A stretch of DNA of 28,245 nt. It comes from a virus. The stretch is from the UHGV virus genome UHGV-0133447; one strand, given 5' to 3'. Positions within the stretch are counted from its first letter, which is position 1. Every line of letters starts with the position of its first letter. Below the pieces are notes generated by a model. The model saw nothing but the letters and a program-made list of their open reading frames with translations. It was not told the origin of the DNA and searched no databases. Shown piece by piece: positions 3,528 through 27,073 of this stretch. The position numbers and the translations under genes were made by a program.

Positions 3528-3812
3528 ATGATCGATCATTACTACGTAACTCACGCTCAAATCCTGGCGCTGAGAAACGTTGTTGCTTTTATCGTGCAAA
3601 CGATGCCCGAAGAACAAAAAGAAAATGTCCTTCAGGTTTTGAGAAAATTTGCTGAAATAGAATTAATGGATGGTATCGACACGCCGCCTACGAGTGATAT
3701 CACCCCGAAAACAGTTGAAAAGTTAAATAAAGCCTACAAGGCAGTCTTCAATGACATTATCGATCTTTCAACGCCTGGCAGGGAATCTGCTTCAGCAAGC
3801 TACCTGCAATAG
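3528..3812 (+). CDS. hypothetical protein (94 aa), opposite strand to surrounding late genes
   Basis: Only sizeable ORF in the 3445-3900 gap. Followed by hairpin ggccaga/tctggcc (3835-3857) and a T-rich tail. No family recognised. Confidence 0.4.
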   Translation: MIDHYYVTHAQILALRNVVAFIVQTMPEEQKENVLQVLRKFAEIELMDGIDTPPTSDITPKTVEKLNKAYKAVFNDIIDLSTPGRESASASYLQ

Positions 3813-3834
3813 TTCTCGACCTTATCTCCATGAT

Positions 3835-3857
3835 GGCCAGAACGTTCTTGTCTGGCC
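3835..3857 (+). terminator. hairpin with T-rich tail after the 3528-3812 ORF (weak intrinsic-terminator candidate)
   Basis: 7-bp stem ggccaga/tctggcc with 9-nt loop, followed by ctttctcaagttt. Confidence 0.3.
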
Positions 3858-3902: not shown

Positions 3903-4133
3903 TCATCGCGTAACCCTGCCGGTTGGTTGCGGGCAGTTAGCCTGCACTGATTTGTTGTGCGCCAGAATGTCGCGCTTCGTCTGCTTATCCAGCACATCGA
4001 TATCGTGGTCAGTAAGGTAGATGATCCGCACCCAGCTGCACGCGGTATCAACCACCACCGGGGCGGGTAAACTTTTCGCGCAGCTCGCGATCAACATCGT
4101 CATCGCCCATACGCTTAACGCTCTCTTCAACAT
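3903..4133 (-). CDS. putative outer-membrane spanin (Rz1-like lipoprotein), overlapping the i-spanin in another frame
   Basis: Internal ATG of the 3903-4292 ORF gives MLKRALSVWAMTMLIASC...: basic n-region, hydrophobic core, lipobox-like IASC. About 76 aa with several Pro and Cys in the mature part. Sits just downstream of the endolysin. Confidence 0.5.
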   Translation of the reverse strand: MLKRALSVWAMTMLIASCAKSLPAPVVVDTACSWVRIIYLTDHDIDVLDKQTKRDILAHNKSVQANCPQPTGRVTR

Positions 4134-4329
4134 CGCTGGCCCCTTTCGTGGCTTCTGCTTTACGTTCTGCCGCGGCGACGCTGGCGGCCGCCTTCTCTTC
4201 GGTGCGCTGCCGGCTGGCTTTCGCTTCTGCTTTACTGGTGCCTCGCGCATGGCCAATGCCGAACGCGCCAGCAATAGCGCCCAGAATGACAACCACCAGC
4301 CCCGCGATAGCTTCTATTCCCATGATCAT
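4048..4329 (-). CDS. putative inner-membrane spanin (Rz-like)
   Basis: 93 aa with N-terminal transmembrane segment (IAGLVVVILGAIAGAFGI) then a charged Ala/Glu/Lys-rich helical region. Start overlaps the endolysin stop (ATGA). The following lipoprotein ORF overlaps its 3' end. Confidence 0.45.
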   Translation of the reverse strand: MIMGIEAIAGLVVVILGAIAGAFGIGHARGTSKAEAKASRQRTEEKAAASVAAAERKAEATKGASDVEESVKRMGDDDVDRELREKFTRPGGG

Positions 4330-4955
4330 CCCACCAGTACCGATTTTGCTTTCAGGAATCGGGCGCGTCGGTCATCAATGCCGTTCTGCCCGCCGTTGAT
4401 AATCTGGGTCACGCGCACTAAATCTCCGTGGTATTTCAAACATCCGTTTGAGGTGTAAAACCAGGCTGCGCTGCGGGCCGCATTAATATATTTCTCCAAC
4501 AACTCAGGGTTGCTGACTAAATCCAGTTTCAGTGCATTACCGCACTTCATATAATTTTCGAGGAAGGTGATCCCGATAATTCCACGCCCGCGGTATTTCC
4601 AGCCATCGCCCGCAGCCTTATTGCCAAAACGATTGTTGTAGACGAGATTAGCGATCGCTCGTTGACGTTCGATCGGTAAAACCTTTTCGTAAGTTTTACG
4701 CCCCAGGGTGTTCGCCTGGTCCTGCGTGATGCGCTTTGCCTTCACAAAACCAGCCAGGCCGGCAACGCTATAGTTAAAACTTTCGACCATCTGGGTAAAT
4801 GACGTGCTTTCGTGTCCACACTGCGCTATGAACATCGCCTGATCGAGTGGAGCTGTAATGCCGAATTCTTTCATCGCAGCATCAATATGCGGAAACCAGC
4901 GCGCAGCTAACCCGGCGCTGATACCAGCCGCCCTTTGAAATTGTGATTGGTTCAT
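4326..4955 (-). CDS. endolysin, glycoside hydrolase family 19 (chitinase-like lysozyme)
   Basis: 209 aa with FIAQCGHESTSF-type motif and overall GH19 endolysin pattern (memory). Flanked by holin-like and spanin-like genes. Confidence 0.85.
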   Translation of the reverse strand: MNQSQFQRAAGISAGLAARWFPHIDAAMKEFGITAPLDQAMFIAQCGHESTSFTQMVESFNYSVAGLAGFVKAKRITQDQANTLGRKTYEKVLPIERQRAIANLVYNNRFGNKAAGDGWKYRGRGIIGITFLENYMKCGNALKLDLVSNPELLEKYINAARSAAWFYTSNGCLKYHGDLVRVTQIINGGQNGIDDRRARFLKAKSVLVG

Positions 4956-5233
4956 CAGTGCCTCAGTGCATCAACCAGTCGCGCCACATTCCCCCTGAAC
5001 CAGAGAACCGCGCCGCAGATAAGAATGTTAGCCAGCACCACCAGCCAGTGGGATGACTCGTACAGGCCAAACAGGAAACGGAAAGGGATGCTGGCATAAA
5101 CCAGCACCATGAGATAAGCCAGAACGGATATGCCCGGACGGTGTCTCGCACTACCTCGTTGGTAGAACATCAATGCCAGCACAATGACGGCGCAAATGAC
5201 TGCATTGGCCAGCGCTGAAGGATCATTTACCAC
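4955..5233 (-). CDS. holin-like small membrane protein
   Basis: 92 aa with three predicted hydrophobic segments and a basic C-terminus. Immediately upstream of the endolysin with a 1-nt start/stop overlap. Confidence 0.55.
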   Translation of the reverse strand: MVNDPSALANAVICAVIVLALMFYQRGSARHRPGISVLAYLMVLVYASIPFRFLFGLYESSHWLVVLANILICGAVLWFRGNVARLVDALRH

Positions 5234-5612
5234 TTGAACCTCCTCCCCGGAACCGGGTCAGCATATTGAACAAGCTATTTAGATCCTGGCTGTTGAGAAA
5301 CGTCAGAACTTTGATGATAAGCGCTGATATTAATACGGCTCCCAACGCATCAAGCGGACGGTCGCTGTAGCCAGTCCAGCTTGAAAGCTTGGAACCCACC
5401 AGACCGGCGCCCAGAACACCAACAATGAATGACGTCATAAAGTATGCCACCAGCTTACCGCGCGATATGTTAGCTGCCGTGGCCACGTAAAAAACCGCCC
5501 CGGCGAACGCACCAAATACCACGCCGTAATCTATTCCGGTAGCCAGACCGAACATGCTAGCCCCCATCAGGCCGCCGGCCGCAACTGAAGTACCAGAGAC
5601 AGGATCGGACAT
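5223..5612 (-). CDS. holin-like membrane protein (possible holin/antiholin partner)
   Basis: 129 aa, Gly/Ala-rich hydrophobic segments, GAGGGGG RBS. First gene of the lysis cassette. Confidence 0.55.
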   Translation of the reverse strand: MSDPVSGTSVAAGGLMGASMFGLATGIDYGVVFGAFAGAVFYVATAANISRGKLVAYFMTSFIVGVLGAGLVGSKLSSWTGYSDRPLDALGAVLISALIIKVLTFLNSQDLNSLFNMLTRFRGGGSSGK

Positions 5613-5657
5613 TTAGCCCCCTCTATTGCTGTGGATCCTCTCAGAACGAGGGGAAAA

Positions 5658-5671
5658 TAGGATGGCCGCCA
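5658..5671. repeat. 14-bp direct repeat copy 1 (taggatggccgcca)
   Basis: Exact 14-mer also at 6271-6284. The two copies bracket an AT-richer segment carrying the opposite-strand ORF 5855-6265. Confidence 0.7.
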
Positions 5672-5854
5672 TGTGACAGCCACCAAAAATCACTGTAAAA
5701 ATATCAGGATTCACCACCCTCTCAGACGGATTTATTCTTCTTGTTCAGTCTCGTCCGCGTACGAAGCCAAGGATGTATCCAAGACCAAAACAAGAAAAAC
5801 CGAATCCCACCACGGGTAATACTGAATAAATAAAATCAGGCATAGGGAAATCTC

Positions 5855-6265
5855 ATGGAAATTATTTCAGTAATCGGAGTGATACTGACACTGCTAGGGC
5901 TCTTTATTCCGTCACTAATCAGTAACCATTCGTCACGTAAGGCAGAGTTCAGGAAGCATTCCGCACCACTGCTGGGAAAGTTGCTAAGCGAAATTGAGGC
6001 TATTGAAGGAGGCTCTTATCCATTCAGGCTTATCAGCGATGCTGATTTCAACCAGTTGCTACCTTACGCCCCGAGGCGCAGGAAAAACGCTCTCCTTGAT
6101 GCTTACACCAGTTATCTCGACGCTCATACGATGGCCACCACGAAGCACTGGCACGATGAACATCCATCCGATGGAATGCTATTTTTCCCGACGGGTTTCT
6201 CAGTCACTAATTCAGATGAGGTACTGAAGAAAATGCAACCTCTGAAAAAAGAACTCAGCAGATAG
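5855..6265 (+). CDS. hypothetical membrane-anchored protein (136 aa), moron candidate
   Basis: N-terminal hydrophobic segment IISVIGVILTLLGLFIPSLI. AGGGAAA upstream of the ATG. Opposite strand to the late operon, in visibly AT-richer DNA bracketed by the 14-bp repeats. Confidence 0.5.
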   Translation: MEIISVIGVILTLLGLFIPSLISNHSSRKAEFRKHSAPLLGKLLSEIEAIEGGSYPFRLISDADFNQLLPYAPRRRKNALLDAYTSYLDAHTMATTKHWHDEHPSDGMLFFPTGFSVTNSDEVLKKMQPLKKELSR

Positions 6266-6270
6266 TCCTT

Positions 6271-6284
6271 TAGGATGGCCGCCA
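6271..6284. repeat. 14-bp direct repeat copy 2 (taggatggccgcca)
   Basis: Exact match to 5658-5671; lies 6 nt after the stop of ORF 5855-6265. Confidence 0.7.
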
Positions 6285-6330
6285 GATGGATTAACGACAA
6301 AGCACAGAGTGAATGATGCTCTGGTGGCAC

Positions 6331-6358
6331 AAATAAAAAAGCCATGCAAATGCATGGC
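6331..6358 (-). terminator. intrinsic terminator-like hairpin (minus strand)
   Basis: Perfect palindrome gccatgca-aa-tgcatggc (6341-6358). On the minus strand it is followed by TTTTTTATTT (complement of 6331-6340). Confidence 0.5.
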
Positions 6359-6462: not shown

Positions 6463-6493
6463 GCCTGCATGAAACCATGCGGGCTTTTTTTTT
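6463..6493 (+). terminator. intrinsic terminator (plus strand)
   Basis: Stem gcctgcatg/catgcgggc (one mismatch) with loop aaac, followed by nine T (6485-6493). Confidence 0.55.
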
Positions 6494-6496
6494 GGC

Positions 6497-6522
6497 CAAA
6501 GAAAAAGCCCACCGAAGTGGGC
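6497..6522 (-). terminator. intrinsic terminator (minus strand) with UUCG-type tetraloop
   Basis: Minus-strand reading ggcccac-ttcg-gtgggc followed by TTTTCTTTGG. Lies downstream of the TerB-like gene. Confidence 0.5.
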
Positions 6523-6896
6523 CTTACAGCTATCATCATTTTTTATTAGGTGTGGTGCCGGGTGCCTCCCGGTAAGTCGCCGCCAGTCCACAGACGACTC
6601 GCAATGCGCAAAAAAACATATCAGACTGGCAATGCCCCTCCGCATAGGGGGATTCACCACACGGATAATTTAGGATGTAGTCATAGGCGGCGTCAATAAC
6701 TGACACTCTGTCAAAGGCATCATTACGATGCCTTTTGCACAGTGCTAATCACTGGATCTAATAAGGGGCCAGAGCAAAGCGATTACCCCGGCTACCAGCA
6801 CGCCATCAGCCAGGATTGACATCATTTTGCTGGTGAAGTCGATAGCAACCACCAGAAACAAAAGCACCCCGGCTGCGGCCCAGCGAAGTTTACCGA

Positions 6897-7322
6897 TCAC
6901 AGGTACTGGTCCAGAGGAAGTTGCAGAGCCTGGGCAATTTTCTTCAGCTGTTTCTCTTCTTCTTCCCCGATGCCGTCGTTATCAGCTACATCAAGACACA
7001 GGCAAAGAACATCGACAGCGTCATCCGTCCCGGCAACGTCAGCCAGTTCGCGCAACGCCTGAGCGTTGGCTGAACGTGGTGATGCTTCATAGCGAGCGCG
7101 AATATTCGAACTCATCTGGGCAATTTCACCAGCAAATGGCGCGAATGCCGGGAGGGCCGAAATAGTCTTCTCCAGCACTGCAATCTCTTTTGCATCGCAG
7201 GTACCATCGGCGTATGCAATCGAGTACGCTCCCCAGACCGTGGCTTCTACGGCATCGCGGTTTTCCATTTTTTTTACTTCAACAACGGCTTTACGGGCTT
7301 TCTTTTTAAAAATACCGAACAT
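6897..7322 (-). CDS. TerB-like domain protein (tellurite-resistance TerB fold), moron candidate
   Basis: Using the ATG for MFGIFKKK...: two acidic motifs (AYADGTCDAKEIAVLEK and VADNDGIGEEEEKQLKKIAQAL) matching the TerB pattern from memory. The track ORF extends to 7403 with an alternative upstream start. Confidence 0.5.
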   Translation of the reverse strand: MFGIFKKKARKAVVEVKKMENRDAVEATVWGAYSIAYADGTCDAKEIAVLEKTISALPAFAPFAGEIAQMSSNIRARYEASPRSANAQALRELADVAGTDDAVDVLCLCLDVADNDGIGEEEEKQLKKIAQALQLPLDQYL

Positions 7323-7341
7323 AATTACGTCTCTCTTTAGT

Positions 7342-7404
7342 GGTGAGCCAACGCTCAGGGATGGTAACCACAAGGCGACGTAATACCGTCCCTCTTGGCT
7401 CACC
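7342..7404 (-). promoter_or_regulatory. long composite hairpin in the leader of the TerB-like gene
   Basis: Outer 10-bp stem ggtgagccaa (7342-7351) / ttggctcacc (7395-7404). Inner 8-bp stem agggatgg (7357-7364) / ccgtccct (7386-7393) with one wobble. Sits between the HNH-AP2 stop and the TerB-like start. Confidence 0.35.
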
Positions 7405-7453
7405 CTGAAAAGTTGTGGTTTTGATTTTTCCGCCGAGCGAGGCGGCTATGAGC

Positions 7454-7954
7454 TTAAATAGATGAAAAATCACCATGGTACTGCCTGGAAGCAGCTACAT
7501 ACGCCCTGTGCGCTTCTTCTTTAGTGTGGAAGCGACCAAGTCGAATTTTTTTCTTTGCAATACTTATTTGCGCAATCCATTTTTTTCTATTGCGGGGGGA
7601 ATCGTTGAAATAGACCCCTTTAAGTCCAGCTGCGTTATTGCTGTGTATCCGTCGATTGCGAGTGTTCTGGTTTTGTGTGCAGAGCCTGAGATTTGTAATA
7701 CGGTTATTCAACTTGTCGCCATCAATATGATCAACAACAAGGGTTGACGGAATTTCACCGTATTTCAAGACCCAAATTATTCGGTGCACACGTATATTCT
7801 TTCCATTGAAGAATACCCTTAAATACCCAGTATCAGTCTTGACGCCAAGAGTGTCGCCAGGACTTTTACTCCCAAAAGGTGACTTGCAATAAAGGATGCC
7901 CGTAGTTTCATCGTATGAAAAAAAGTTCCTAACCGTTTCAAGAGATAGATTCAT
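7454..7954 (-). CDS. HNH homing-type endonuclease with C-terminal AP2-like DNA-binding domain
   Basis: 166 aa. HNH core VVDHIDGDKLNNRITNLRLCTQNQN. C-terminal GVYF...KKWIAQISIAKKKIRLGRFHTKEEAHRAYVAASRQYHGDF resembles AP2 domains (memory). AGGAG RBS. Gene is visibly AT-richer than its flanks. Confidence 0.8.
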   Translation of the reverse strand: MNLSLETVRNFFSYDETTGILYCKSPFGSKSPGDTLGVKTDTGYLRVFFNGKNIRVHRIIWVLKYGEIPSTLVVDHIDGDKLNNRITNLRLCTQNQNTRNRRIHSNNAAGLKGVYFNDSPRNRKKWIAQISIAKKKIRLGRFHTKEEAHRAYVAASRQYHGDFSSI

Positions 7955-8008
7955 GCCTACTCCTGGTATGGGTCCTGTGCTTAAATAACGCCGAGCGTGG
8001 CGCAGATA

Positions 8009-8033
8009 CGAAAAAGGCCCGCGAATGCGAGCC
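8009..8033 (-). terminator. intrinsic terminator-like hairpin (minus strand) upstream of the HNH-AP2 gene
   Basis: Minus-strand reading ggctcgc-attc-gcgggcc (7-bp stem, one G-U pair) followed by TTTTTCG. Confidence 0.45.
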
Positions 8034-8246
8034 TGATGGATCCGCTTACTGATACGGAGCGACCAACCTAAGTTGTCGCAGATTCAAATTGTGGCCCTGC
8101 CTTTAAGTCACTTTGCGCGCAGCTGGGACATGTAGTTTTCGCATCGTGATCGGGATTCGCTTCAGACGCTGGCCCCGCAGCCATTTAAGTGCCGGTTACG
8201 TTTATCCGGCGGCTTTCGCCCGGTTAAGCCCTAAGGTAAGGGATTT

Positions 8247-8393
8247 GGTTGTGACACCAGGCCGTTACGCCTGCTTACTTCCTGCCGCTCTGTTTTGGTA
8301 TTGGCCGCCAGTAACTGCGACTCAGCCGATTTACAGGTCTTTGCGTCGGCCGGCGCTGCAGCCCACTTGAGCACATCACAACGGAAAGAGCGC
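8247..8393 (-). ncRNA. candidate structured tRNA-like element, copy A (degenerate)
   Basis: Minus-strand leader gcgctctttccgttgtgat resembles the leaders at 21901 and 22159. gttgtga can pair with tcacaac about 130 nt downstream to close the element. Contains gcgccggccgacg internal motif. Region 8036-8505 has no credible ORF. Confidence 0.3.
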
Positions 8394-8505
8394 TTAGTGC
8401 ATTTAAGCCAAACCCCATGTAGGAAGCACTCTTACCTGTTGTGCGCTCCGTTTCGTGGAGCAGACGCCGCCGGAATCGCACCGGCAGAATCATCACATTG
8501 GTATA

Positions 8506-8581
8506 TGGTGCTGGTTGACGGAATCGAACCGCCGACATCCTGCTTACAAGGCAGGCGCTCTACCAGCTGAGCTAAACCAGC
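8506..8581 (-). tRNA. tRNA-Thr (anticodon UGU), phage-encoded
   Basis: Minus-strand 76-nt cloverleaf GCTGGTT-TA-GCTC-AGCTGGTA-GAGC-G-CCTGC-CTTGTAA-GCAGG-ATGTC-GGCGG-TTCGATT-CCGTC-AACCAGC-A-CCA. Acceptor 7 bp, D-loop GG, anticodon loop with U33 and A37, canonical T-loop, encoded CCA. Confidence 0.8.
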
Positions 8582-9621
8582 AAATTACGCATTTCACTGA
8601 CCGTCTGTTCAAATCTCTCGGTTTCCAGTTCGACACCTAGTCCCCTTCGCCCGAGAAGAGCAGCCTGCTTGAGCGTTGAGCCTGATCCAAAAAAGAAATC
8701 AGCTACAACATCACCCGGGCGGCTACTCGCTGTGATTATCTGCTCCAGCATATCCGCAGGCTTTTCACATGGGTGTTTACCTGGATAAAACTGAACAGGC
8801 TTATGAGTCCAGACGTCGGTATATGGCACCGTGACCGATACGCTGAATGGTCGCCGTAAACGGTAATATTCCTGCTGGAGTTCAGAATATTTTCGGCTTA
8901 ACGATTGCCAGGTGCCGACAAGCTGGTGGTGAGGTTTTCCCAGTTCGTTGCGTGAGTGCTTATCCATGGCGATTGTTTGAAACAAAGCCTGCAACTTTAA
9001 ATAATCGGCTTCGTTCGGTAGCTGCCACTGACTAAGGCCAAACCAGTGGGAAACCATATTTTTCTTACCTGTGGCTTCTGCAATCTGAGCCGACGTCACG
9101 CCAAGAGATTCCCGTGCATCACGGAAGTAAGAAATTAAAGGCGTCATGACGTGTTGCTTTAACTCATTACACTTTGCGGCATATCCATCGTCTTTGGGCC
9201 TGTATGGCCCCTGATAATGGTCGGCAAAAATGATACGCTCAGTGGCCGGGAAATAAGCGCGTAAGCTCTCCTTATTGCAGCCGTTCCATCGCCCTGATGG
9301 CTTAGCCCAGATGATATGGTTGAGCAGGTTAAACCGCTCTCTCACCAACAGCTCAATATCCGCTGCCAGGCGGTGCCCACAGAACAGATACATGCTGCCG
9401 GCAGGTTTTAACACTCGCCAGAACTGTGCCAGACAGCTATCCAGCCAACGTAAATAGTCTTCGTCCCCCTTCCATTGGTTATCCCAGCCGTTTGGCTTCA
9501 CCTTAAAATAAGGCGGATCGGTAACAATAAGATCAATGGAGTTATCGGGTAGCGATGGGAGGTATTGCAGGCAATCAGCATTGATTAACTCAATACTGGA
9601 TATTTTTACAGTATTTTTCAT
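8572..9621 (-). CDS. orphan DNA methyltransferase, N6-adenine/N4-cytosine (beta) class
   Basis: 349 aa with TDPPYF catalytic motif near the N-terminus. No adjacent restriction endonuclease. The ORF's last codons overlap the 5' end of the tRNA. Confidence 0.85.
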   Translation of the reverse strand: MKNTVKISSIELINADCLQYLPSLPDNSIDLIVTDPPYFKVKPNGWDNQWKGDEDYLRWLDSCLAQFWRVLKPAGSMYLFCGHRLAADIELLVRERFNLLNHIIWAKPSGRWNGCNKESLRAYFPATERIIFADHYQGPYRPKDDGYAAKCNELKQHVMTPLISYFRDARESLGVTSAQIAEATGKKNMVSHWFGLSQWQLPNEADYLKLQALFQTIAMDKHSRNELGKPHHQLVGTWQSLSRKYSELQQEYYRLRRPFSVSVTVPYTDVWTHKPVQFYPGKHPCEKPADMLEQIITASSRPGDVVADFFFGSGSTLKQAALLGRRGLGVELETERFEQTVSEMRNLLV

Positions 9622-9770
9622 AGATCAGTAAGCGTAACTCTGATAGGCTCACTTTGCTTTTGCGCTAAAGCAGTGGGCCGTGGTTAGCTTGTGACCTGAA
9701 AGCATGAGCTGATGGCTGGCCGGGTGCTACAACACCCACCAGCCGCCCATTTTCACAGCAAAAGCCCCCA

Positions 9771-9992
9771 TTACTGGAGGCGCTTATAACATCCGAACTG
9801 ATAATCAGATAACCCCGCCATTACCAGCTGCGTAAGTATGAGCTGGCAGCGTTCGCGGCTCAGGTGAGTATTCTGAGCAATCTCCCCAGCCGTAGCCGGT
9901 TTGTCACTTAACTCATCAAAAACAGCCTTGGCTGTTTCCGTCATATCTTGCTGATTTAGCATGTCTTTTATCTCAAATAAGTGGTGTGACAT
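9771..9992 (-). CDS. small winged-helix-like DNA-binding protein (hypothetical; PapI/FaeA-like fold only suspected)
   Basis: 73 aa from the ATG (MSHHLFEIK...); the track's longer ORF starts at a TTG. Segment ATAGEIAQNTHLSRERCQLILTQLVMAGL has an HTH-like pattern. First ORF downstream of the late promoter/terminator. Confidence 0.35.
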   Translation of the reverse strand: MSHHLFEIKDMLNQQDMTETAKAVFDELSDKPATAGEIAQNTHLSRERCQLILTQLVMAGLSDYQFGCYKRLQ

Positions 9993-10063
9993 ACAGATAA
10001 CTCTGGTGACGGTATCCAGCAAGAACTAATTGAAAGAGAAGAAGATTTTATCGATTTTATCCC

Positions 10064-10089
10064 ATAAAAAAACCCGCTCGCTGGCGGGT
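10064..10089 (-). terminator. intrinsic terminator just downstream of the putative late promoter (tR'-like)
   Basis: Minus-strand reading acccgc-cagcga-gcgggt followed by seven T (complement of 10066-10072). Confidence 0.5.
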
Positions 10090-10127
10090 TAATCAACGTT
10101 GAACATACAAAGCCCATCGTTATAAAT

Positions 10128-10156
10128 AAAATTACACAAAAGCGGCAACTTTGCAA
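10128..10156 (-). promoter_or_regulatory. candidate late promoter (PR'-like) immediately downstream of Q
   Basis: Minus-strand TTGCAA (10151-10156), 17-nt spacer, TAATTT (10128-10133). About 40-60 nt upstream of the terminator at 10064-10089, analogous to the lambda PR'-tR' arrangement. Confidence 0.35.
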
Positions 10157-10172
10157 GTAACGTGTCGCTAAA

Positions 10173-13937: not shown

Positions 13938-14410
13938 TCTGCCTCCAGCACTATTTTCAACTCAAACGGAACATCTCCTCCGCAATAGCAGAGCGGGCCA
14001 AGGTCAGACATGAGGCTCCACAGGGTCATTGACGTATAGCCATTTTCGTCTGTTATCGGGGGCGAAAAGTCTCCGAAGATCGCCGGGTGCTGGATTCGAT
14101 TCTCTTCGTGCTGGCTTCTCAAGTAACTTAGAGCTTCGGCAGTAAGTTTCACTTTTACGATGCTGTTGAGATTGACCGATATTTCTCTGGCCAACAGCGA
14201 AGAGGTGATACTGATACCGCGAGAAACCCCGCGGGTAATCTTGATGGCCCCTTTTCTCTCCAGCGCCTTGAGGTGCGTTGCTGCTGCATTGGGGGACCGG
14301 CACCCCAGCATGCCGGTCAGTTCGTAAGTTGTAGGCGGAAAACCATGTTTACGCTGATATTCGATCAGGAGGTCAAGGACCTCCTGCTGCCTTAAGGTCA
14401 AGGAAGTCAT
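13934..14410 (-). CDS. LexA-type N-terminal DNA-binding domain protein lacking the S24 peptidase domain
   Basis: From ATG 14410: MTSLTLRQQEVLDLLIEYQRKHGFPPTTYELTGMLGCRSPNAAATHLKALERKGAI closely follows the LexA DNA-binding-domain pattern. The ~90-aa C-terminal part has no Ser/Lys peptidase motifs. Start overlaps the C5-MTase stop (ATGA). Confidence 0.6.
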   Translation of the reverse strand: MTSLTLRQQEVLDLLIEYQRKHGFPPTTYELTGMLGCRSPNAAATHLKALERKGAIKITRGVSRGISITSSLLAREISVNLNSIVKVKLTAEALSYLRSQHEENRIQHPAIFGDFSPPITDENGYTSMTLWSLMSDLGPLCYCGGDVPFELKIVLEAE

Positions 14411-16389
14411 GCTGCCTGCTCCTCTCTGTTCACGCACATTTCGGGTAAGTTGGCGCGTACCAGCGCTTCGGCGAACGGCGGCGGGACGGCATTGCCACAG
14501 CGCGCGACCTGCTTATCTTTCGCGTATTTCACGCCGCGGTAATCCTGGTCAATGATGTACCACTCCGGAAAGCCCTGCGCCCGATAGAGCTCGTGCGGCT
14601 GCAGCATGCGCATGCCGATATCAACGATGCGGTAAGTCACTCCGCCGATTTCCACCAGCCCGGTGCATTCCTCTCCGCAGTATTCCTGCAGGAACGACAG
14701 CACCTGCTGCGCTCGCTCTTCGTCATAGTCCTCGACCGCCAGAGTCGTTTTAACCTCCCCTACATGCTGGCCACCGGCAGTGATAGTCGGCATCGGCTCG
14801 TCAGTTCGCTGGCCATCGCGGCAGGTTCCGCGCAGCTTAACCAGATGAGAAGCGACTAATGCATGGTGATCGACAGTCGTTACTGAATGCGCTGGCTCAT
14901 CCAGCCCCACGCCAGCGCCCTGATAATTCCCTCCGTAGTGTTTTGCCAGGAACGCACCAACTACAGCATGTTTCCCGCCACCAGCCACAACGGTGCCCAG
15001 CGGCTTATCCAGTCCTGGCACGCGAGGTGCCTGTCCTGGCCGTTCCCCGTATCCCATTTGAATGAGCGTCGGCACAACCAGCTGCGATTTACCTCCGCCG
15101 CCCGCGGTGATTGTTGCGCTAGGCTCATCCGCCCGGTGTCCGATGCTGGCGCCGAACTGCCGGGCGATAACCGGAGCGACGACACAGGCGCGCGATTCTT
15201 TCAGGATGGTGTGAGCGGGTTTATCGAGCGGGCGTGGTTTAGCCTGGTACTCGCTGCCGCCATTGCCAGCCAGGAACGGCGCCAGCTCTGCTTCAACAAT
15301 ACCCAGAGCGTGACCATTCCCGCCCGGGCGTTTTGCGGTACCGGCCGTCACCGTCGGCAACGGATCGGTGACTTCCTGCCCGGTAGCTCCAGTTCGGAAT
15401 TTTGTCAGATGAGGTACCGCAATTGCGTAGCCGTGGGTTTTCGTAATCGTCTGTAGCGGATCGTCCAGCGCCTGTCCCCGGAAACAGTCGTATTTGCCGC
15501 GTGTCGTTGTGTGATTGCACTTCACGATGAACGGCGAAGCGCTTTCGATAACAAAGCGCTGAATGCCGCGGGCAATCCGTTTTAGCGTATTCTCTGCCAG
15601 TGACTTTTTGCGACCGAAGATGCTCGGCGCGGGGATTGACCAGTCTATGCATTCCGCAGCTGTACGCCACGGCTCAAGCTGGCCCGCCAGCACGGCGGCA
15701 GACTTCGGATCCCCGTGCGTGGCTTCCGGCCAGACTATCAGTTTCCCGTCCCGGCGCATCACCATGAAGAACCGCTTACGGATGGTCGGCGCGCCATAAT
15801 CGCAGGCGCGCAGCTCGCGAAAATCGACGACATAACCCAGCCCGGCAATTAAGCGCTTGGCCTGCTCGCTATCCGGTGAAAACTCCAGAAACTCGCAACA
15901 CTCCACCAGTGCAGGATGATCTGCTGGAATACCGGTGGTAAGCATCCCGACAAATGCATTGAAAGTTTCACCGATGCGTGCCGGATCCGGTCGCATTTCT
16001 GCCGCGAGTAACGGACCCCACGTCTTAAACTCTTCGACGTTTTCCAGCATCATGACTCGCGGGCCAACATCCAGCGCCCAACGAATGACGATCCATGCCA
16101 GCCCTCGAATAGCTTTCTCTACTGGTTTAGCACCTTTCGCTTTAGAAAAGTGACGACAGTCAGGCGAGAACCATGCCAGGCCGACAGGCTTGCTACTGGT
16201 AGCGGCTAATGGGGATACATCAAACACACTTTCGCAATAGTGAAGCGTGTCGGGATGGTTAGTGCGGTGCATAGCAACGGCGTTAACATCGTGGTTAATA
16301 GCGATATCAACACTGCGCCCTATTGCCAGTTCAATACCTGTACTGGCTCCACCGCCGCCAGCGAAATTATCGACAATAATCTCACGCAT
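14407..16389 (-). CDS. DNA (cytosine-5)-methyltransferase with long repeat-containing variable region
   Basis: 660 aa. DNFAGGGG (motif I), SPDCRHFS (catalytic Cys), MMLENVEEF (ENV), C-terminal QGFP and GNAV motifs. The intervening ~250 aa carries about six related modules of the form P-x-x-T-I/V-T-A-G-G. GAGGGGG RBS. Confidence 0.8.
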   Translation of the reverse strand: MREIIVDNFAGGGGASTGIELAIGRSVDIAINHDVNAVAMHRTNHPDTLHYCESVFDVSPLAATSSKPVGLAWFSPDCRHFSKAKGAKPVEKAIRGLAWIVIRWALDVGPRVMMLENVEEFKTWGPLLAAEMRPDPARIGETFNAFVGMLTTGIPADHPALVECCEFLEFSPDSEQAKRLIAGLGYVVDFRELRACDYGAPTIRKRFFMVMRRDGKLIVWPEATHGDPKSAAVLAGQLEPWRTAAECIDWSIPAPSIFGRKKSLAENTLKRIARGIQRFVIESASPFIVKCNHTTTRGKYDCFRGQALDDPLQTITKTHGYAIAVPHLTKFRTGATGQEVTDPLPTVTAGTAKRPGGNGHALGIVEAELAPFLAGNGGSEYQAKPRPLDKPAHTILKESRACVVAPVIARQFGASIGHRADEPSATITAGGGGKSQLVVPTLIQMGYGERPGQAPRVPGLDKPLGTVVAGGGKHAVVGAFLAKHYGGNYQGAGVGLDEPAHSVTTVDHHALVASHLVKLRGTCRDGQRTDEPMPTITAGGQHVGEVKTTLAVEDYDEERAQQVLSFLQEYCGEECTGLVEIGGVTYRIVDIGMRMLQPHELYRAQGFPEWYIIDQDYRGVKYAKDKQVARCGNAVPPPFAEALVRANLPEMCVNREEQAA

Positions 16390-17335
16390 GAGCGGTCCCC
16401 CTCATGCTGCCGACCAGCCCACCAGCAACGGTGATGATTTCGCTGGTGGGCACGCGCTCCAGCCACAACTGGTTAATGTGGGCCTTCAGCTTGTTCTGCT
16501 GGGAGAACTCCAGATCCTCTGCGCCTTGTACCTGTCCAAAGACGAGTCCAACTTCCAGTGGCCAGATCCGGGATTCAGGCTCAGCCAATGATGCAACAGC
16601 ATCGGGGATGATCACTTCAGGAGACTGAACTGGCGAAACTGGTGACAGGAATTTTCCTGCAGCAAACTCAGCCAGCGCCATACTTGCGCGCCCTTTTGCT
16701 TCCAGCTCAACGCGATCGATATAGCTAAAATGTTCACCGCGCCAGGTCTTATCAAATACCGCAATGGCCCCGGCAAAGAATGCGCTGGTGGGCTTCTGCT
16801 TTTCGTCGGCCGGCACAAACCACGTTGGGAGATCGAATCCAATACGACCACGAATAAACATGATGTGATCGGCATATTCCGGCCACCATGTTTCACTTGT
16901 TGCTGACTTCACGAGGTAAATGTAACGACCACCCTTTTCACGCTGCTCGGCGGTATAGTTCATAATATGAGTCATGCCAGTGATGGCTTGTTTTTCATGG
17001 TACTGCGAACGGCTATACGGCGGATTAGCAAAGGCCGCTCCTCCGAGTTCTACCAAACGACCAGACCAGTCCTGCGTCAGCGCATTATCTTCAGCGGTAT
17101 ACCATGCCGGACATTTTGTATTGCTGTCGTCTGCAAACAGGTCCAGTACCAGCGGGCCAAACATAGCGTTAACGCCCCAGAACAGCAGATCAGGGGTACG
17201 CCATTGATCCCCGACTTCTTTTAAATAATGCGCACTACGCTGGCGCTGTTCCTCAAGTGCCAGGCAATAAGGGCTGACGGTTTTTGTTAAAGTTTGCTCT
17301 TCTGCGGTCATAGCTTCTTGTACTTCCTGACTCAT
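16382..17335 (-). CDS. phage Dam-like N6-adenine DNA methyltransferase with C-terminal extension
   Basis: 317 aa. WRTPD...FANPPYS motif characteristic of the phage N6-adenine methyltransferase family (memory). AGGGGA RBS. Confidence 0.8.
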   Translation of the reverse strand: MSQEVQEAMTAEEQTLTKTVSPYCLALEEQRQRSAHYLKEVGDQWRTPDLLFWGVNAMFGPLVLDLFADDSNTKCPAWYTAEDNALTQDWSGRLVELGGAAFANPPYSRSQYHEKQAITGMTHIMNYTAEQREKGGRYIYLVKSATSETWWPEYADHIMFIRGRIGFDLPTWFVPADEKQKPTSAFFAGAIAVFDKTWRGEHFSYIDRVELEAKGRASMALAEFAAGKFLSPVSPVQSPEVIIPDAVASLAEPESRIWPLEVGLVFGQVQGAEDLEFSQQNKLKAHINQLWLERVPTSEIITVAGGLVGSMRGTAHA

Positions 17336-17513: not shown

Positions 17514-17972
17514 TCAATCGGAGCACAAGTCACCTCCGCAGTAATTTCCGGCCAGATAGCATGACCCGGCGGAATCATTCATGTTTCTGGCGTTTCGAAC
17601 AGAAGCATTCTTAAGACGCAGGTATCGCTCTCTTGCTTTAGCCGTACAGTTGCTGTCACAAAGTTGCTGCCATACCGTCGCCGCACGGCGGTAATAGCGT
17701 TTCTCTTCCAGCTTTTTGGCTGTCGCTTCAAGGGCGAGAATCTCCCCCGAAAGCCCACCTGGCAGGTACTCTTCAATATCAATGGATCCCGCTACGAAGT
17801 AGATAAACCCACCAGTAACTTCAACGCTGGCAAGTTCCCCGTCGTAGTAAAGGCGATGAACAGCGCTCTTCACTGTTACCGGTTTGGTTTCAGGAAATGC
17901 CGCAGTGATATCGCGCAGCATTTTGCCTGGATTCTTCTCAATAAATTCAAAGATCGACTTGGCTATGTTCAT
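17514..17972 (-). CDS. hypothetical protein with PerC-like C-terminal motif
   Basis: KRYYRRAATVWQQL resembles the RRAA-x-RW signature of PerC-family activators (memory, uncertain). Start overlaps the replication-protein stop (ATGA). Confidence 0.4.
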   Translation of the reverse strand: MNIAKSIFEFIEKNPGKMLRDITAAFPETKPVTVKSAVHRLYYDGELASVEVTGGFIYFVAGSIDIEEYLPGGLSGEILALEATAKKLEEKRYYRRAATVWQQLCDSNCTAKARERYLRLKNASVRNARNMNDSAGSCYLAGNYCGGDLCSD

Positions 17973-18880
17973 CCCCGGAACCCCCGTGGAATCGTGGTTT
18001 GTACTGGACTAATTGAATTAACATCCCGCGGTCTGGTTTTGTCCCACGACTCCCTTGGCGGGCGGCCTTTAGCATCCCAGCGGATGGCGCTTTGCAGATA
18101 TCCCTCGAATTTTTTAGGGCCGAAAAGTGTCTCGGGTCGCATGTACTGGTATTGCTCGTCGTTGCCATGCCAGTGCTCATGCTTGACGTCGATTACCAGA
18201 TTCAAGTCGCTAACGGTATGACCTTCGCGGAGGCGGGCGCGAATGTTCTCCAGTGAGGTCTTAGATTTCTGGTAACGGGAACCGCTGACCAGATTCAGGT
18301 GTGCCAGAACTTCGATCGCGTTATCGGTAATAACAACTTCAGGATCCGGCTTATCGTCGGGTTCCGCAGGAGCCCGACAAGAAGGTTTTTTAGATGACGG
18401 ATCTAATGACGGATCTAATGACGGATCGCCTTCAACCATTGAGGGGTCCTCCCGCAATATTTGAGGGGGTACAGACCCATTATTTGAGGCATCAGAATTT
18501 GACCCCTCAAATTTTGAACCCTCAAATTCTGAGGCATCAAATTTTGATTGTTCACGTGGCGTTGCGTAGAAGATTTTTGCTTCAGCTGCTGCACGTTCAA
18601 GCATGTCCACATTGAGTTTATAAACGTTCGAATTATTCTTTCCACCCACGCGCCGTTCCTGCTTCTTCAGCCAGCCTTTAGCCTGAAGCTTTTTGATAGC
18701 GCTGCGGACAGTATTCTCGCTCTTGGCGCCGATCTGTCGCTGAATAGTGGTTACCGCTGGCCATGACACACCTTCGTCATTACTGAAATCTGCCAGGCGA
18801 GCCATGACCGCTATTTCTGAGATTATCAGCCCTTTGAAAGCGCATGCTTCCCATACGAGGCCGTGTAATTTACTGCTCAT
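17969..18880 (-). CDS. replication initiator / replisome organiser (lambda O-like) containing the origin iterons
   Basis: N-terminal winged-HTH-like domain, low-complexity linker (DPSLDPSLDPS), conserved-looking C-terminal domain. The linker-coding DNA carries tandem and inverted short repeats. GAGGG RBS. Confidence 0.65.
   Translation of the reverse strand: MSSKLHGLVWEACAFKGLIISEIAVMARLADFSNDEGVSWPAVTTIQRQIGAKSENTVRSAIKKLQAKGWLKKQERRVGGKNNSNVYKLNVDMLERAAAEAKIFYATPREQSKFDASEFEGSKFEGSNSDASNNGSVPPQILREDPSMVEGDPSLDPSLDPSSKKPSCRAPAEPDDKPDPEVVITDNAIEVLAHLNLVSGSRYQKSKTSLENIRARLREGHTVSDLNLVIDVKHEHWHGNDEQYQYMRPETLFGPKKFEGYLQSAIRWDAKGRPPRESWDKTRPRDVNSISPVQTTIPRGFRG
18393..18540. repeat. iteron cluster (candidate origin of replication) inside the replication gene
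   Basis: Tandem 12-mers atgacggatcta (18393-18430, about 2.5 copies). Multiple ATTTGAGGG-type repeats in both orientations, e.g. tttgaggggg 18460-18469, ccctcaaatt 18503-18512 and 18519-18528, tgaggcatca twice. Confidence 0.5.
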
Positions 18881-21900: not shown

Positions 21901-22043
21901 GGCAGTGCTCTTACCGTTGTGGTGTAGCTCAAATGGATAGAGCGCCCCTTATGTGGGGAGTTGAGCACTAACCAATGTTCGCAACACAGGTTATCTCATG
22001 CGGCCGGCCGGACGTTATGCGGGTTCAAATCCCGTCACCACAG
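21901..22043 (+). ncRNA. candidate tRNA-like structured element, copy B1
   Basis: Leader ggcagtgctcttaccgttgtggt. TGTGGTG (21918-21924) pairs with CACCACA (22036-22042). D-arm-like GCTC-AAATGGATA-GAGC. T-arm-like GCGGG-TTCAAAT-CCCGT (22019-22035). About 60 extra nt between the anticodon-like region and the T-arm. No encoded CCA. Confidence 0.3.
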
Positions 22044-24445: not shown

Positions 24446-24645
24446 TGGCACATGTGAAAGTGAAAGAATTGGTTGCTGCAGCATACGCTGCAGCACCTGA
24501 CCTACCACCAGCAGCAGCACAATTAATGCAAGACATAGCGTCAAGGCTGGATGTGACCTTTGTCGCCCTTACAGAGGCAATGGACCAGAACACCGCTATG
24601 GCCGCGATGATAGCGAACCTGAGCGAGGAAAACAGAAATGGCTAA
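24445..24645 (+). CDS. hypothetical small protein (66 aa)
   Basis: Start overlaps the upstream stop (TAATG) and its own end overlaps the ParB-like start by 8 nt, so it is translationally coupled on both sides. Confidence 0.45.
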   Translation: MAHVKVKELVAAAYAAAPDLPPAAAQLMQDIASRLDVTFVALTEAMDQNTAMAAMIANLSEENRNG

Positions 24646-25426
24646 AAACTCGATCGATGCTTATGGCGCCAGCGGCAAGACAAACGTTCTGATGTTCGAG
24701 CCGAAAAATCTGCATATTGTCACTGACAAGGCTCACCCGCTTTACGATGAGCGTATTCACTTACCTCTCAGTGAGGCAATGGTGCTGAACATCATGGATC
24801 AAGGTGTTCTGGAGCCGATTATTGTGTGGAAAGACCCGGAAACGGGGCTGTCCTGTGTGGTCGATGGCCGTCAGCGTGTCCGCCATACCCTGGAAGCTAA
24901 CAGGCGTCTGGCAAAAGAGGGAAAAACCCCACTGCTGGTTCCGGCTGTCACTAAACGCGGTTCTGCTGTTCGTATGGCGCAGGCAATGGTCAGCGCAAAC
25001 GAAATCCGCCAGGCCGATACACCGCTGGGCCGAGCCAAAAAGATGGCTGATGCACTGGAGCGCGGGCATGACGAGGAAGACCTCGCGCTGATGTTCGGCG
25101 TCAGCGTCCCCACTGTACGCGCTACGCTATCCCTTCTGGATGCCACTCAGGCAGTCAAAGACGCGGTAGAGTCCGGCACAGTAACAGTTACCCAGGCACG
25201 TCAACTGGCATCACTAAAACCCGAAGAACAGCGGGAAAAGGTAGCCGAAATCGAAGCGGCGACCGCTGGCACTACTGGTCATGAAAAAGCGCGTCGTCAG
25301 CGCCAGGTTCTCGGCGATAAGAAACCGCGCCTTAAAACTCGCAAAGAAATCACTAAAGCCCTCGAAGCTGCCAGCGGTGAATACGCTGATGCTCTCCGCT
25401 GGGTACTTGGGGAGGTAACATTATGA
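24638..25426 (+). CDS. ParB-like nuclease-domain protein with HTH
   Basis: 262 aa. N-terminal LEPIIVWKDPETGLSCVVDGRQRV matches the ParB/Srx GxxR core. Central EEDLALMFGVSVPTVRATLSLL is HTH-like. GAGGAA RBS. Confidence 0.7.
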   Translation: MAKNSIDAYGASGKTNVLMFEPKNLHIVTDKAHPLYDERIHLPLSEAMVLNIMDQGVLEPIIVWKDPETGLSCVVDGRQRVRHTLEANRRLAKEGKTPLLVPAVTKRGSAVRMAQAMVSANEIRQADTPLGRAKKMADALERGHDEEDLALMFGVSVPTVRATLSLLDATQAVKDAVESGTVTVTQARQLASLKPEEQREKVAEIEAATAGTTGHEKARRQRQVLGDKKPRLKTRKEITKALEAASGEYADALRWVLGEVTL

Positions 25427-26499
25427 GTAAAGTAGGAGATCATTTCTTTGAGTTTCCTGCATCACGTGGAACTCAGGGCGTTTCAATCGTCCTGATGCTG
25501 AGTGTTCCTGCACGGACCCTTACGCGAGTTCTCGCCAGCGATAATTACGGGGACACTCTTGAACGCTCGCAGCGAGAACTGAACCCAGCCAGGGCGAAAA
25601 AGTTTTATCAGTATCTTGTTGAAGCATACGAAAACAAAGAGCCATTTATCATTCCACCGCTGGTAGGTAACTGCGATTCGTATGTTGAATTCGAAGAGTT
25701 CGGAAACACTAATGTCGGGGTGGCCCGATTCCCAATGGATGCAGAGATTAAATTGTTTGATGGTCAGCATCGCGCAGCAGGTATTGCGGAATATTGTCGC
25801 ACCATTGATGAACCGATCCATGTCCCGATGATGCTTACTCTCCAGTTGCCACTGAAAACGCGGCAGCAGTTTTTCTCGGACATTAACAACAATGTTTCGA
25901 AGCCATCTGCGGCAATCAACATGGCCTATAACGGGCGCGATAAGAACGCGCAGGTGATGGTCAGCTTTATCAGTTCACACGACGTCTTTTCTGAAGTCAC
26001 CGATTTTGAGCATAACGTCGTTCCCGCGAAAAACGATAAGTGGGTGAGCTTCAAGGCCCTTAGTGATGCCACAGCAAAATTTTCAGGTTCCTGCTCGCAG
26101 GATGATCTTGAAGGATTATGGAATGCGTGGCTTATGCTGACAGGTTTAGATGATATTCGCCGCGGTACGAATCAAGCCGAATATAAACGCGAGTATATCC
26201 AGTTCCATGCCGTGATGATTAATGCCTTCGGTTACGCAGTGCAGCGGCTAAGCGAAGGCCGGGGAGTTCGTGGGGTCACGCTGATGATTGAGGATCTGGT
26301 AATGAATACCGGCATTGCCGATCGTGAAGATTTCTTTCTTATTTCATCATGGGTCGGAATTTGCGCCAGCTGTGAGAAAGCTAGGCCAACGGTCATTGCG
26401 AATGTATCCGCTCAAAAGGCTGCAGCATCACGCCTGATGGATGCCATCGTGAATAAAAGCTTGTCTGTTAGTCGCGGTAAGGAGGCCAGCCATGACTGA
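25423..26499 (+). CDS. DGQHR-domain protein (DndB-like)
   Basis: 358 aa with the literal motif LFDGQHRAAGIAE. Size similar to DndB-family proteins. Start overlaps the ParB-like stop by 4 nt. Confidence 0.7.
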   Translation: MSKVGDHFFEFPASRGTQGVSIVLMLSVPARTLTRVLASDNYGDTLERSQRELNPARAKKFYQYLVEAYENKEPFIIPPLVGNCDSYVEFEEFGNTNVGVARFPMDAEIKLFDGQHRAAGIAEYCRTIDEPIHVPMMLTLQLPLKTRQQFFSDINNNVSKPSAAINMAYNGRDKNAQVMVSFISSHDVFSEVTDFEHNVVPAKNDKWVSFKALSDATAKFSGSCSQDDLEGLWNAWLMLTGLDDIRRGTNQAEYKREYIQFHAVMINAFGYAVQRLSEGRGVRGVTLMIEDLVMNTGIADREDFFLISSWVGICASCEKARPTVIANVSAQKAAASRLMDAIVNKSLSVSRGKEASHD

Positions 26500-27073
26500 G
26501 GCTGAATTAGCGCTTGAACGAGCAAAAAAGCTGGCGTTCTTAATGACAGAGCGTTTCAGTATGAACCCCATTAGCGCCAAACTGCTTAATGAAGCATGGC
26601 GTCTTGCATTCCCTGACGAAGTTGCAGTGGCCAGGCGCATGAGGGCGCTGGTAGAGGCGCTGGAGAAGGCGCAGACCAAAAACGCACTCGTTGCCGGCGG
26701 CATTGAGGCTACAGCAAAGCTACATGAGCGCATCGCCGAGCTGGAAGAAGCAGAGCAAAAACTCTGTGCCGCTAACGTGACGCTTGATGCTCGCGCGGAA
26801 TTGGCTGAGCGCCGGTTGGCAGAGATGGAGTCCCGTACCGTCACCATTGAGCCATTCCGCTCGTTTGTCACTGATGCCGACTTAGCAGCGCTCCACCGCT
26901 TCGCCGAATGCTGTGATGACCCTGAATCTGGCGGTCACGATTTGGAACAAGAGCAGGTAAGGCGGCTTGAGGCAATCGGAGCATTGCAGCGTTCGGGGCG
27001 AATTAGCTACATCACGAGCTTTGGTGATGTCCTGATTTCGATTACCGCTGGCATCAAGTGGGAGGCTAAGTGA
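26492..27073 (+). CDS. hypothetical coiled-coil protein
   Basis: 193 aa. Start overlaps the DGQHR stop by 8 nt. Ala/Glu/Leu-rich heptad-like central region. Confidence 0.45.
   Translation: MTEAELALERAKKLAFLMTERFSMNPISAKLLNEAWRLAFPDEVAVARRMRALVEALEKAQTKNALVAGGIEATAKLHERIAELEEAEQKLCAANVTLDARAELAERRLAEMESRTVTIEPFRSFVTDADLAALHRFAECCDDPESGGHDLEQEQVRRLEAIGALQRSGRISYITSFGDVLISITAGIKWEAK

Follow-up and report, generated by a model that had tools for sequence, protein, structure and literature searches.

The virus genome UHGV-0133447 was analyzed over a stretch of 28,245 nucleotides (hereafter, the window), which corresponds to a lambdoid prophage of the Klebsiella type. We focus on a small two-gene cassette that lies directly before the holin gene and is bounded by two exact copies of a 14-bp direct repeat, TAGGATGGCCGCCA (5658–5671 and 6271–6284, + strand). 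Read along the minus strand, the locus comprises a late leader RNA of the STnc100 family (6494–6691), a leader-end stem-loop (6278–6328), the right (leader-proximal) repeat copy, the open reading frame (ORF) ORF136 on the opposite strand (5855–6265, +), a small ORF in the orientation of the late operon (5745–5843, −), the left (holin-proximal) repeat copy, a conserved holin leader (5613–5657, −), and the holin gene itself (Phage_holin_8 by Pfam; 5223–5612, −), which is the first gene of the lysis cassette. An earlier note on this DNA had placed the cassette between the holin and upstream late genes. Because the STnc100-type leader precedes the cassette and the holin comes after it, the position is better described as between the late promoter with its leader RNA and the first late gene. 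Comparison with relatives, presented below, indicates that 613 bp (5672–6284) are an insertion flanked by duplicated target.

The cargo is a real and conserved pair of divergent genes. ORF136 encodes a 136-amino acid (aa) protein that is predicted to be membrane-anchored, with an N-terminal hydrophobic helix followed by a helical domain, and it runs antisense to the late transcript. The opposite-strand, membrane-anchored protein proposed in the earlier note is real: it has 23 homologue clusters (49–99% identity) across Enterobacterales (Klebsiella, Kosakonia, Escherichia, Leclercia, Enterobacter, Mixta, Erwinia, and Salmonella), and its AlphaFold model is confident (predicted local distance difference test, pLDDT, 86). 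The protein matched no family in Pfam, NCBIfam, PHROGs, or PADLOC and, using Foldseek, no fold in the PDB, and a search of BFVD returned one weak structural match (Q8W646, an unnamed viral protein of 223 aa). A tblastn search of 50,697 phage records gave no match, a DNA search of E. coli complete genomes found no copy of the cassette, and the closest genomic copy is in Klebsiella michiganensis DSM 25444. The small ORF, which was overlooked in the earlier note, encodes a hydrophobic peptide of 32 aa (MPDFIYSVLPVVGFGFSCFGLGYILGFVRGRD). Its translation is kept in all cassette lineages, including the groups at 54% (L024) and 49% (Salmonella) identity, with variable alignment columns concentrated at third codon positions (14/6/22 for first, second, and third positions), and it is called by the gene caller in one related locus (L239). 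Like ORF136, it has no match in Pfam, NCBIfam, PHROGs, or PADLOC.

The start codons of the two genes are 11 nt apart in divergent orientation, and in Salmonella they overlap as CATG. With this layout, each gene should have its promoter and 5′ region overlapped by the other gene, a configuration reminiscent of type I toxin-antitoxin or mutual-interference systems. On a more speculative reading, the 32-aa membrane peptide and ORF136 could be a toxin- or modulator-type pair acting at the membrane beside the holin. A consensus scan alone gave one promoter-like site (5673–5702, +), and in this clade the first plus-strand terminator after ORF136 is at 6463–6484. The gene pair always lies between the Q gene and the lysis cassette with ORF136 in opposite orientation, next to several different holin and Q families. 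It is a widely distributed, uncharacterized pair directly before the holin in Klebsiella, Escherichia, Salmonella, Enterobacter, Kosakonia, Leclercia, Mixta, and Erwinia prophages. Two IMG/VR contigs (L032 and L036, the latter identical to L022) have ORF136 truncated at residue ~35 by an inserted element, and in Mixta (L007/L025) the small-ORF side abuts an IS21-family (IstB-like) element, as read by eye.

An exact 14-mer pair is not rare in 28 kb, and the window alone is weak evidence. It holds four other unrelated exact 14-mer pairs (five distinct pairs in total), compared to a calculated expectation of ~1.5 anywhere in 28 kb and ~0.1 within 1 kb. No further exact copies of the repeat exist in the window. 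When up to two mismatches were allowed, shuffled windows had a mean of 0.09 matches, and none of 100 shuffles gave three. A near-copy matching at 12/14 positions lies within ORF136 (6127–6140; TACGATGGCCACCA) and matches at 13/14 in L015/L028; the 26-nt stretch that includes it (6125–6150) is 73% similar to 5670–5695, is coding (HTMATTK), and may be due to chance. The significance of the repeat thus rests on comparison with relatives. In 30 other locus entries with a left junction, which are overlapping stretches of ~18 distinct contigs, the repeat is 15 bp long (TAGGATGGCCGCCAG), and in its extended form 17 of 18 positions match. A private G>T change at 5672, found in the window only, cut the ancestral 15-bp repeat to 14 bp. 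Through the same substitution, an ATG appears on the minus strand, at the head of a potential 19-codon ORF that overlaps the holin start; an upstream ORF beginning at this codon (ATGGCGGCC...) was considered and rejected because the ATG exists in the window alone. As the earlier note had stated, the interval is richer in AT than its surroundings: the GC fraction is 0.451 (5672–6270), compared to 0.54 in the lysis genes and 0.51 in the whole window.

To determine the origin of the repeat, filled and empty sites were aligned. When 5672–6284 is removed, the window aligns without gaps across the junction with a related contig, L055, which shares its leader and its Phage_holin_8 holin type and has a single homologous copy of the repeat sequence (...GAGGGGAAAT-TAGAAAGGCCGCCA-GATGGATTAACG...). 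In a BLAST comparison of a filled locus (L004) with L055, 19 bases of the latter (7895–7913) match both flanks, which is the signature of a target duplication. The 613 bp are thus an insertion that duplicated its target. Single-copy empty sites, which the earlier note predicted, thus exist; its perfect direct repeat is an exact match and, by this comparison, a real duplication of the target. The cassette is also missing from L001 and L002, which have the same holin type as the window, and its absence from these loci and from colinear L055 bears out its description as extra DNA (i.e., a moron). In total, ~70 leader-bearing contigs lack the cassette.

These data also address the suggestion that the repeat is a coincidence, or that a chance 14-mer pair mediated deletion of the cassette and so produced the 'empty' forms. 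The five exact pairs found against ~1.5 expected lend it some support, but the expected number within 1 kb is only ~0.1 and the repeat matches both indel boundaries base for base. Moreover, empty sites are the majority state and are diverse (several holin types, in Klebsiella and Salmonella), and they carry diverged versions of the sequence, which shows that they are not recent deletions of this allele. We consider chance to be a very improbable explanation.

The right repeat copy (6271–6284) is native to the leader module, whose conserved end it forms. The leader-end stem-loop (−) has its 5′ arm, GCCACCAGA, at 6320–6328 (given on the + strand) and its 3′ arm, TCTGGCGGC, at 6278–6286, where it overlaps the right copy. 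Read on the minus strand, the repeat corresponds to TGGCGGCC followed by ATCCTA, that is, the 3′ arm of this stem plus a tail of six bases. RNAalifold analysis of the stem (GCCGCCAGA/TCTGGCGGC) over 15 distinct variants gave nine pairs, and at two of these the two main variants differ by compensatory double changes. The L055 version has a predicted fold of −26.7 kcal/mol (z −3.2); no Rfam family matched the stem. In phages without the moron, a homologous single copy is located 35–45 bp upstream of the holin start (KO-TP1: GAGAATGGCCGCCAGATGGATTAACGACAAAGC; SEN34 and SPN3UB: TAGGAAGGCCGCCCGGTGGATTAACGACAAAAC), and it adjoins TGGATTAACGACAAA in these three phages and in 85 IMG/VR stretches. The leader-end element itself (GGCCGCCNGRTGGATTAACGACAAA) also has matches in 85 IMG/VR stretches. 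Of its 87 occurrences in the loci analyzed (IMG/VR and reference phages), ~61 directly abut the holin, ~15 have the ORF136 cassette, ~10 have an extra segment of ~95 nt, and one (L055) is the empty holin_8 site. The stem-loop ends the late leader in ~85 lambdoid phage contigs from Klebsiella and Salmonella, and it might serve as an RNase III/processing site or control holin expression. The repeat is therefore part of a conserved regulatory element, a finding that counts against the earlier note's reading of the 14-mer as a recombination core.

The left copy (5658–5671; minus-strand reading TGGCGGCCATCCTA) has a different context. It supplies the 3′ arm of a terminator-like hairpin (5661–5684, −; consensus terminator scan) with the structure GGTGGCTGTC-ACAT-GGCGGCCATC, followed by CTATTTT (tail 5650–5660). 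The hairpin has 10 bp and a predicted fold of −16.5 kcal/mol (z −2.1), and its 5′ arm, GGTGGCTGTC, is derived from the cassette. The 14-mer is absent from diverged cassettes at ~70% aa identity (L005, L019, L020, L021, L023, L031, and L239), as well as from those at 54% and 49%. In the same place, diverged cassettes have GGCTGCC-loop-GG(C/T)GGCC-T6, and across at least four different left contexts they all start with AATAAAAAAGGCC(G/A)CC-loop-GGCAGCC, which we read as a compact minus-strand intrinsic terminator following the small ORF. This cassette terminator and the leader-end stem have one and the same 3′ arm, GG(C/T)GGCC (the GGCCGCC arm is common to both), which places the holin-proximal joint within an 8-nt microhomology of two terminator-like stems. 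The leader-proximal joint is 5 bp after the ORF136 stop codon and shows no homology. The two joints are staggered by 14–15 bp on the recipient.

Given this shared arm, it could be argued that no duplication took place, and that the cassette terminator arm and the leader-end arm are convergent GC-rich arms that were later homogenized by gene conversion or selected to identity. The left sequence of the diverged cassettes, AAAAAAGGCC(G/A)CC, already matches the leader-end element over 7–8 nt, which speaks for this view. However, where cassettes typically have AAAAAA, the left copy has the leader-specific TAGGAT, the identity of the two copies extends over 15 nt and takes in 6–7 bases outside the stem, and both flanks align to the empty site of L055. 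Sharp-edged conversion tracts of 15 bp are also unlikely, and we regard convergence as an improbable account of the repeat.

The explanation that we favor, and hold to be probable, is insertion of a self-contained two-gene moron at the end of the late leader by short-homology or illegitimate recombination between terminator-like stems. Under this scenario, a two-gene moron with its own minus-strand terminator would have inserted into the final few bases of the late-leader module, directly before the holin leader. The holin-proximal junction would have formed by crossover or template switch within the 8-nt microhomology between the cassette terminator arm and the target stem arm, and the leader-proximal junction by non-homologous joining 5 bp past the ORF136 stop. 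The 14–15-bp stagger of these joints on the recipient would have duplicated that stretch. No dedicated recombinase would be involved. How the two joints formed, and in which order, is an inference: either there were two events of short-homology or illegitimate recombination, or replication switched template once, leaving the recipient and returning to it. Selection would then have kept both the leader-end stem and a terminator before the holin. The right copy would leave the leader-end stem intact, and the left copy, together with the cassette 5′ arm, would rebuild a terminator-like hairpin. In the lysogen, the rebuilt hairpin (5661–5684) would presumably act as an insulator that shields the holin from transcription of the small ORF, and in lytic growth Q-modified polymerase from PR′ would read through it.

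Several observations weigh against this scenario. The empty site of L055 differs from the repeat at 2/14 positions and its flanks are 79–91% identical, and the immediate ancestor is unsampled. An exact single-copy 14- or 15-mer between a holin_8 leader and the late leader was not found in IMG/VR, where the search gave only L055 with its 12/14 copy, and two metagenome-contig scans did not find an exact empty site either. The promoters of both genes and the activity of the terminator are predictions from consensus scans, and the scenario does not account for the 12–13/14 near-copy inside ORF136 (6127–6140). Finally, a one-off illegitimate event does not by itself predict a repeat-bounded Salmonella cassette with a single-copy empty site, and this recurrence hints that the flanking regulatory repeats may be more than a by-product.

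In Salmonella prophages, the orthologous gene pair (49% identity) is accompanied by an additional small ORF, and an unrelated, imperfect direct repeat of ~125 bp bounds this cassette. The two copies (L237: 2657–2788 and 3430–3566) are ~80% identical, and each ends in a plus-strand terminator. L241 (1–200) has a single hybrid copy of this repeat with no cassette within the stretch examined, and L242 has a single copy without the gene pair, carrying only the extra ORF of 28 aa. The single-copy element is absent from the sequenced-phage collection and was found in IMG/VR only. Repeat-bounded gain and loss of the gene pair is therefore seen more than once, with different repeats. In addition, a non-coding segment of ~95 nt occurs at the same junction between leader end and holin leader in ~10 contigs with two holin types (L065, ~1610–1760; also L075, L082, L087, L089, L091, and L105). 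It ends in GGCCGC(C/T)(C/T)ATTCCT (GGCCGCCnATTCCT), which resembles the leader-end sequence GGCGGCCATTCAT, and no tRNA or Rfam match was found in it at loci of the L065 type.

This recurrence with different repeats is what the model of PeSL (promoter plus stem-loop) mobility in T4-type phages would predict (PMC2839356). Applied to our locus, the cassette would loop out as a circle via its flanking repeats and re-enter phages by short-homology, Campbell-type recombination at the leader-end element, thereby regenerating the repeats. The idea gains from the presence/absence of the same pair between unrelated repeats in two lineages (15 bp in Klebsiella, ~125 bp in Salmonella) with single-copy empty sites in both, from the nature of these repeats as pieces of terminator-like elements, from the leader-end-like GGCCGCCnATTCCT that likewise ends the ~95-nt segment, and from the precedent in T4-type phages itself (PMC2839356). 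It loses from the short identity (15 bp only), from the presence of two copies per genome with no dispersed family, from the single gene cargo in 87 occurrences of the target element, and from mosaic breakpoints that lie away from the repeats. A circle would have the junction ...AGATAGTCCTT-TAGGATGGCCGCCAG-GTGACAGCC..., and a precise deletion ...GAGGGGAAAA-TAGGATGGCCGCCAG-ATGGATTAAC...; in IMG/VR, neither a circle nor a tandem junction (TCCTT-15mer-GTGACAGCC) was found, nor was an exact empty site. On balance, we think PeSL-like mobility unlikely, although among the alternatives to insertion at the leader end it is the one with most in its favor.

The mosaic structure of related loci suggests how the cassette spreads today. 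In seven loci, the holin is 71% identical to that of the window, yet 5613–6331 is 98–100% identical and the holin leader (5613–5657) is 100% identical. The mosaic breaks lie at the holin leader/start codon on the left and within the leader on the right, not at the 14-mers. Breaks at these positions point to present-day spread by homologous recombination in larger flanks: a block of ~1.07 kb (holin leader, moron, and leader) appears to be exchanged by ordinary homologous recombination in larger conserved flanks rather than via the 14-mers. The holin leader, identified by alignment, contains a hairpin (CCTCTCagaacGAGGGG, 5637–5653) and a ribosome-binding site. Every lysis cassette of the Phage_holin_8 type has this leader, whether or not the moron is present, and it would serve as the left homologous anchor in this exchange.

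The earlier note had suggested that the 14-mer is more like the core of a site-specific recombination system. In such a system, the repeat would be an att- or attC-like core for a tyrosine or serine recombinase encoded elsewhere, or a transposon-type duplication made by a trans-acting transposase. A direct repeat of 14–15 bp flanking a discrete cargo, with single-copy empty sites, is what this proposal calls for, and a recombinase acting in trans from elsewhere is possible. The remaining evidence is unfavorable to it. The cassette encodes no recombinase or transposase, neither of its proteins having matched a family in the four collections searched, and no terminal inverted repeats join its two ends. 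The 87 occurrences of the target element include a single gene cargo, the core is missing from diverged cassettes, the mosaic breaks lie elsewhere, and the sequence of the repeat is accounted for by its role as a stem arm. The note had also proposed a search for other cargo beside the 14-mer. Among the IMG/VR matches listed, no other cargo is flanked by it, new stretches hold single, scattered, chance-like copies, and two copies occur only at known moron loci, where relatives with both copies show no cargo variation. At 14–15 bp, the duplication is also longer than the target duplications known for insertion sequence (IS) elements. The cassette lacks those defining features of att/attC cassettes and transposons that were tested, and a dedicated system of either kind is highly unlikely.

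The leader module that received the cassette is part of a late region with an extended upstream interval. On the minus strand, the Q antiterminator gene (11021–10173) is followed by an N6/N4 methylase gene, tRNA-Thr, HNH-AP2, TerB-like, and DUF3927 genes, and a PR′-like promoter, and then by the STnc100 leader, terminators, the right repeat copy, the cassette, the left copy, the holin leader, and the holin. After the holin come a second holin-like gene (4955–5233), a GH19 endolysin gene (4326–4955; Pfam), spanin-like ORFs, and the terminase. The late leader (PR′-to-tR′ type) matches the STnc100 family at full length (Rfam RF02076, model positions 1–206 of 206; 100.7 bits, compared to a gathering threshold of 47) and is 99% identical to that of Klebsiella phage ST974-OXA48phi18.2. 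Consensus scans placed the PR′-like promoter at 6696–6667 (−) and leader terminators at 6525–6504 and 6361–6338 (−). We take this STnc100-type leader to correspond to the PR′-tR′ leader of lambda. The lambda late promoter is located just downstream of Q, and here PR′ and the STnc100 leader are ~3.5 kb downstream of it, with the DNA methylase, tRNA-Thr, HNH-AP2, TerB-like, and DUF3927 genes in between (6700–10170, −). In a Salmonella prophage (L237), three tandem STnc100-family matches are present downstream of Q (3639–3851, 4129–4311, and 4399–4598, −), with a tRNA between them (4081–4154).

Elsewhere in the window, a tRNA match in Rfam (21918–22043, +; 40 bits) is spread over 126 nt, with recognizable acceptor, D, and T arms and ~50 nt inserted after the anticodon region. 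ARAGORN called no tRNA in this interval; the match may reflect a phage tRNA that is interrupted or carries an intron, or else a remnant. At 18394–18417, within a replication-region ORF (17969–18880), a 12-bp unit (ATGACGGATCTA) is perfectly duplicated in tandem. Three DNA methyltransferases (Dam, 16382–17335; C5 methylase, 14407–16389; N6/N4 methylase, 8572–9621) give the window a heavy load of DNA-modification functions, and the early-left genes (24638–28154, +) include those for a ParB-HTH protein, a DndB-like protein, and a dATP/dGTP pyrophosphohydrolase-domain protein.

Among known systems, STnc100 and PasD are prophage small RNAs that adjoin Q (bioRxiv 10.64898/2026.05.13.724894). The module that takes up the cassette at its end matches STnc100 at full length, although this match stops at 6494 and the leader-end stem that gives rise to the repeat (6278–6328) is ~170 nt further downstream. 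Integron cassettes with attC sites and phage att cores share with our locus a discrete cargo bounded by a short repeat able to fold in a hairpin. Here, in contrast, neither an integrase nor an attI/attC architecture or array is present, a single cargo occurs, and diverged cassettes are devoid of the core. IS elements and miniature inverted-repeat transposable elements (MITEs) are similarly flanked by a direct duplication of the target, whereas the present cassette has no terminal inverted repeats or transposase, and its duplication is longer than usual and partly a microhomology with the insert.

The PeSL cassettes of T4-type phages (Arbiol et al. 2010, PMC2839356) are alike in that stem-loop or terminator sequences flank non-essential ORFans at indel boundaries, no dedicated recombinase is known, and the module is transcriptionally insulated. 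They differ in that PeSLs are dispersed, multi-copy promoter plus stem-loop units of tens of bp with detectable mini-circles, whereas in the window only the 3′ arm and tail (15 bp) are repeated, twice per genome, and no circle junction was seen in IMG/VR sequences. The repeated unit comprises only the 3′ arm and tail in the Klebsiella type and a whole terminator-bearing element of ~125 bp in Salmonella. One speculative extension, which we consider rather doubtful and put slightly below PeSL-like looping out itself, is a mode of mobility in lambdoid phages that parallels the T4 PeSL: guided by hairpins and independent of a recombinase, it would use the flanking terminator-arm repeats as its working ends. 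By pairing between its terminator stem and the leader stems already in place, the gene pair would relocate inside the Q-holin interval, and each move would recreate both repeats and insulation. If true, this would explain why the cassette is bounded by repeats in both Klebsiella (15 bp) and Salmonella (~125 bp).

The class to which the cassette is closest is that of the lambdoid morons, a concept that reportedly goes back to Hendrix and Juhala. The Q-to-holin interval is a classic cargo zone (e.g., stx). The cassette fits the moron definition as extra DNA of different GC content with its own predicted terminator and putatively independent transcription. As in other morons (reviewed in 'The moron comes of age', PMC3594210), the additional DNA is found in some phages and absent from colinear relatives, its GC content is unlike that of its neighbors, it has its own terminator-like hairpin, plausible promoters, and an orientation opposite to the surrounding operon, and it lies in the Q-to-holin interval. 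It differs in having two divergent genes, not one, and an unusually legible scar, with a 14–15-bp target duplication and a hairpin that combines one cassette arm with one target arm. The entry of morons into phage genomes is still put down to 'undefined, perhaps illegitimate, recombination' (PMC2839356), making clean insertion scars with matching empty sites useful. The locus offers an example at base resolution, in which the tail of a conserved leader stem-loop served as target, the joint would use a GC-rich arm common to two terminator-like hairpins, and the product keeps the leader structure plus a terminator before the lethal lysis genes. This suggests that terminator stems may be preferred as microhomology joints because their products stay transcriptionally insulated.

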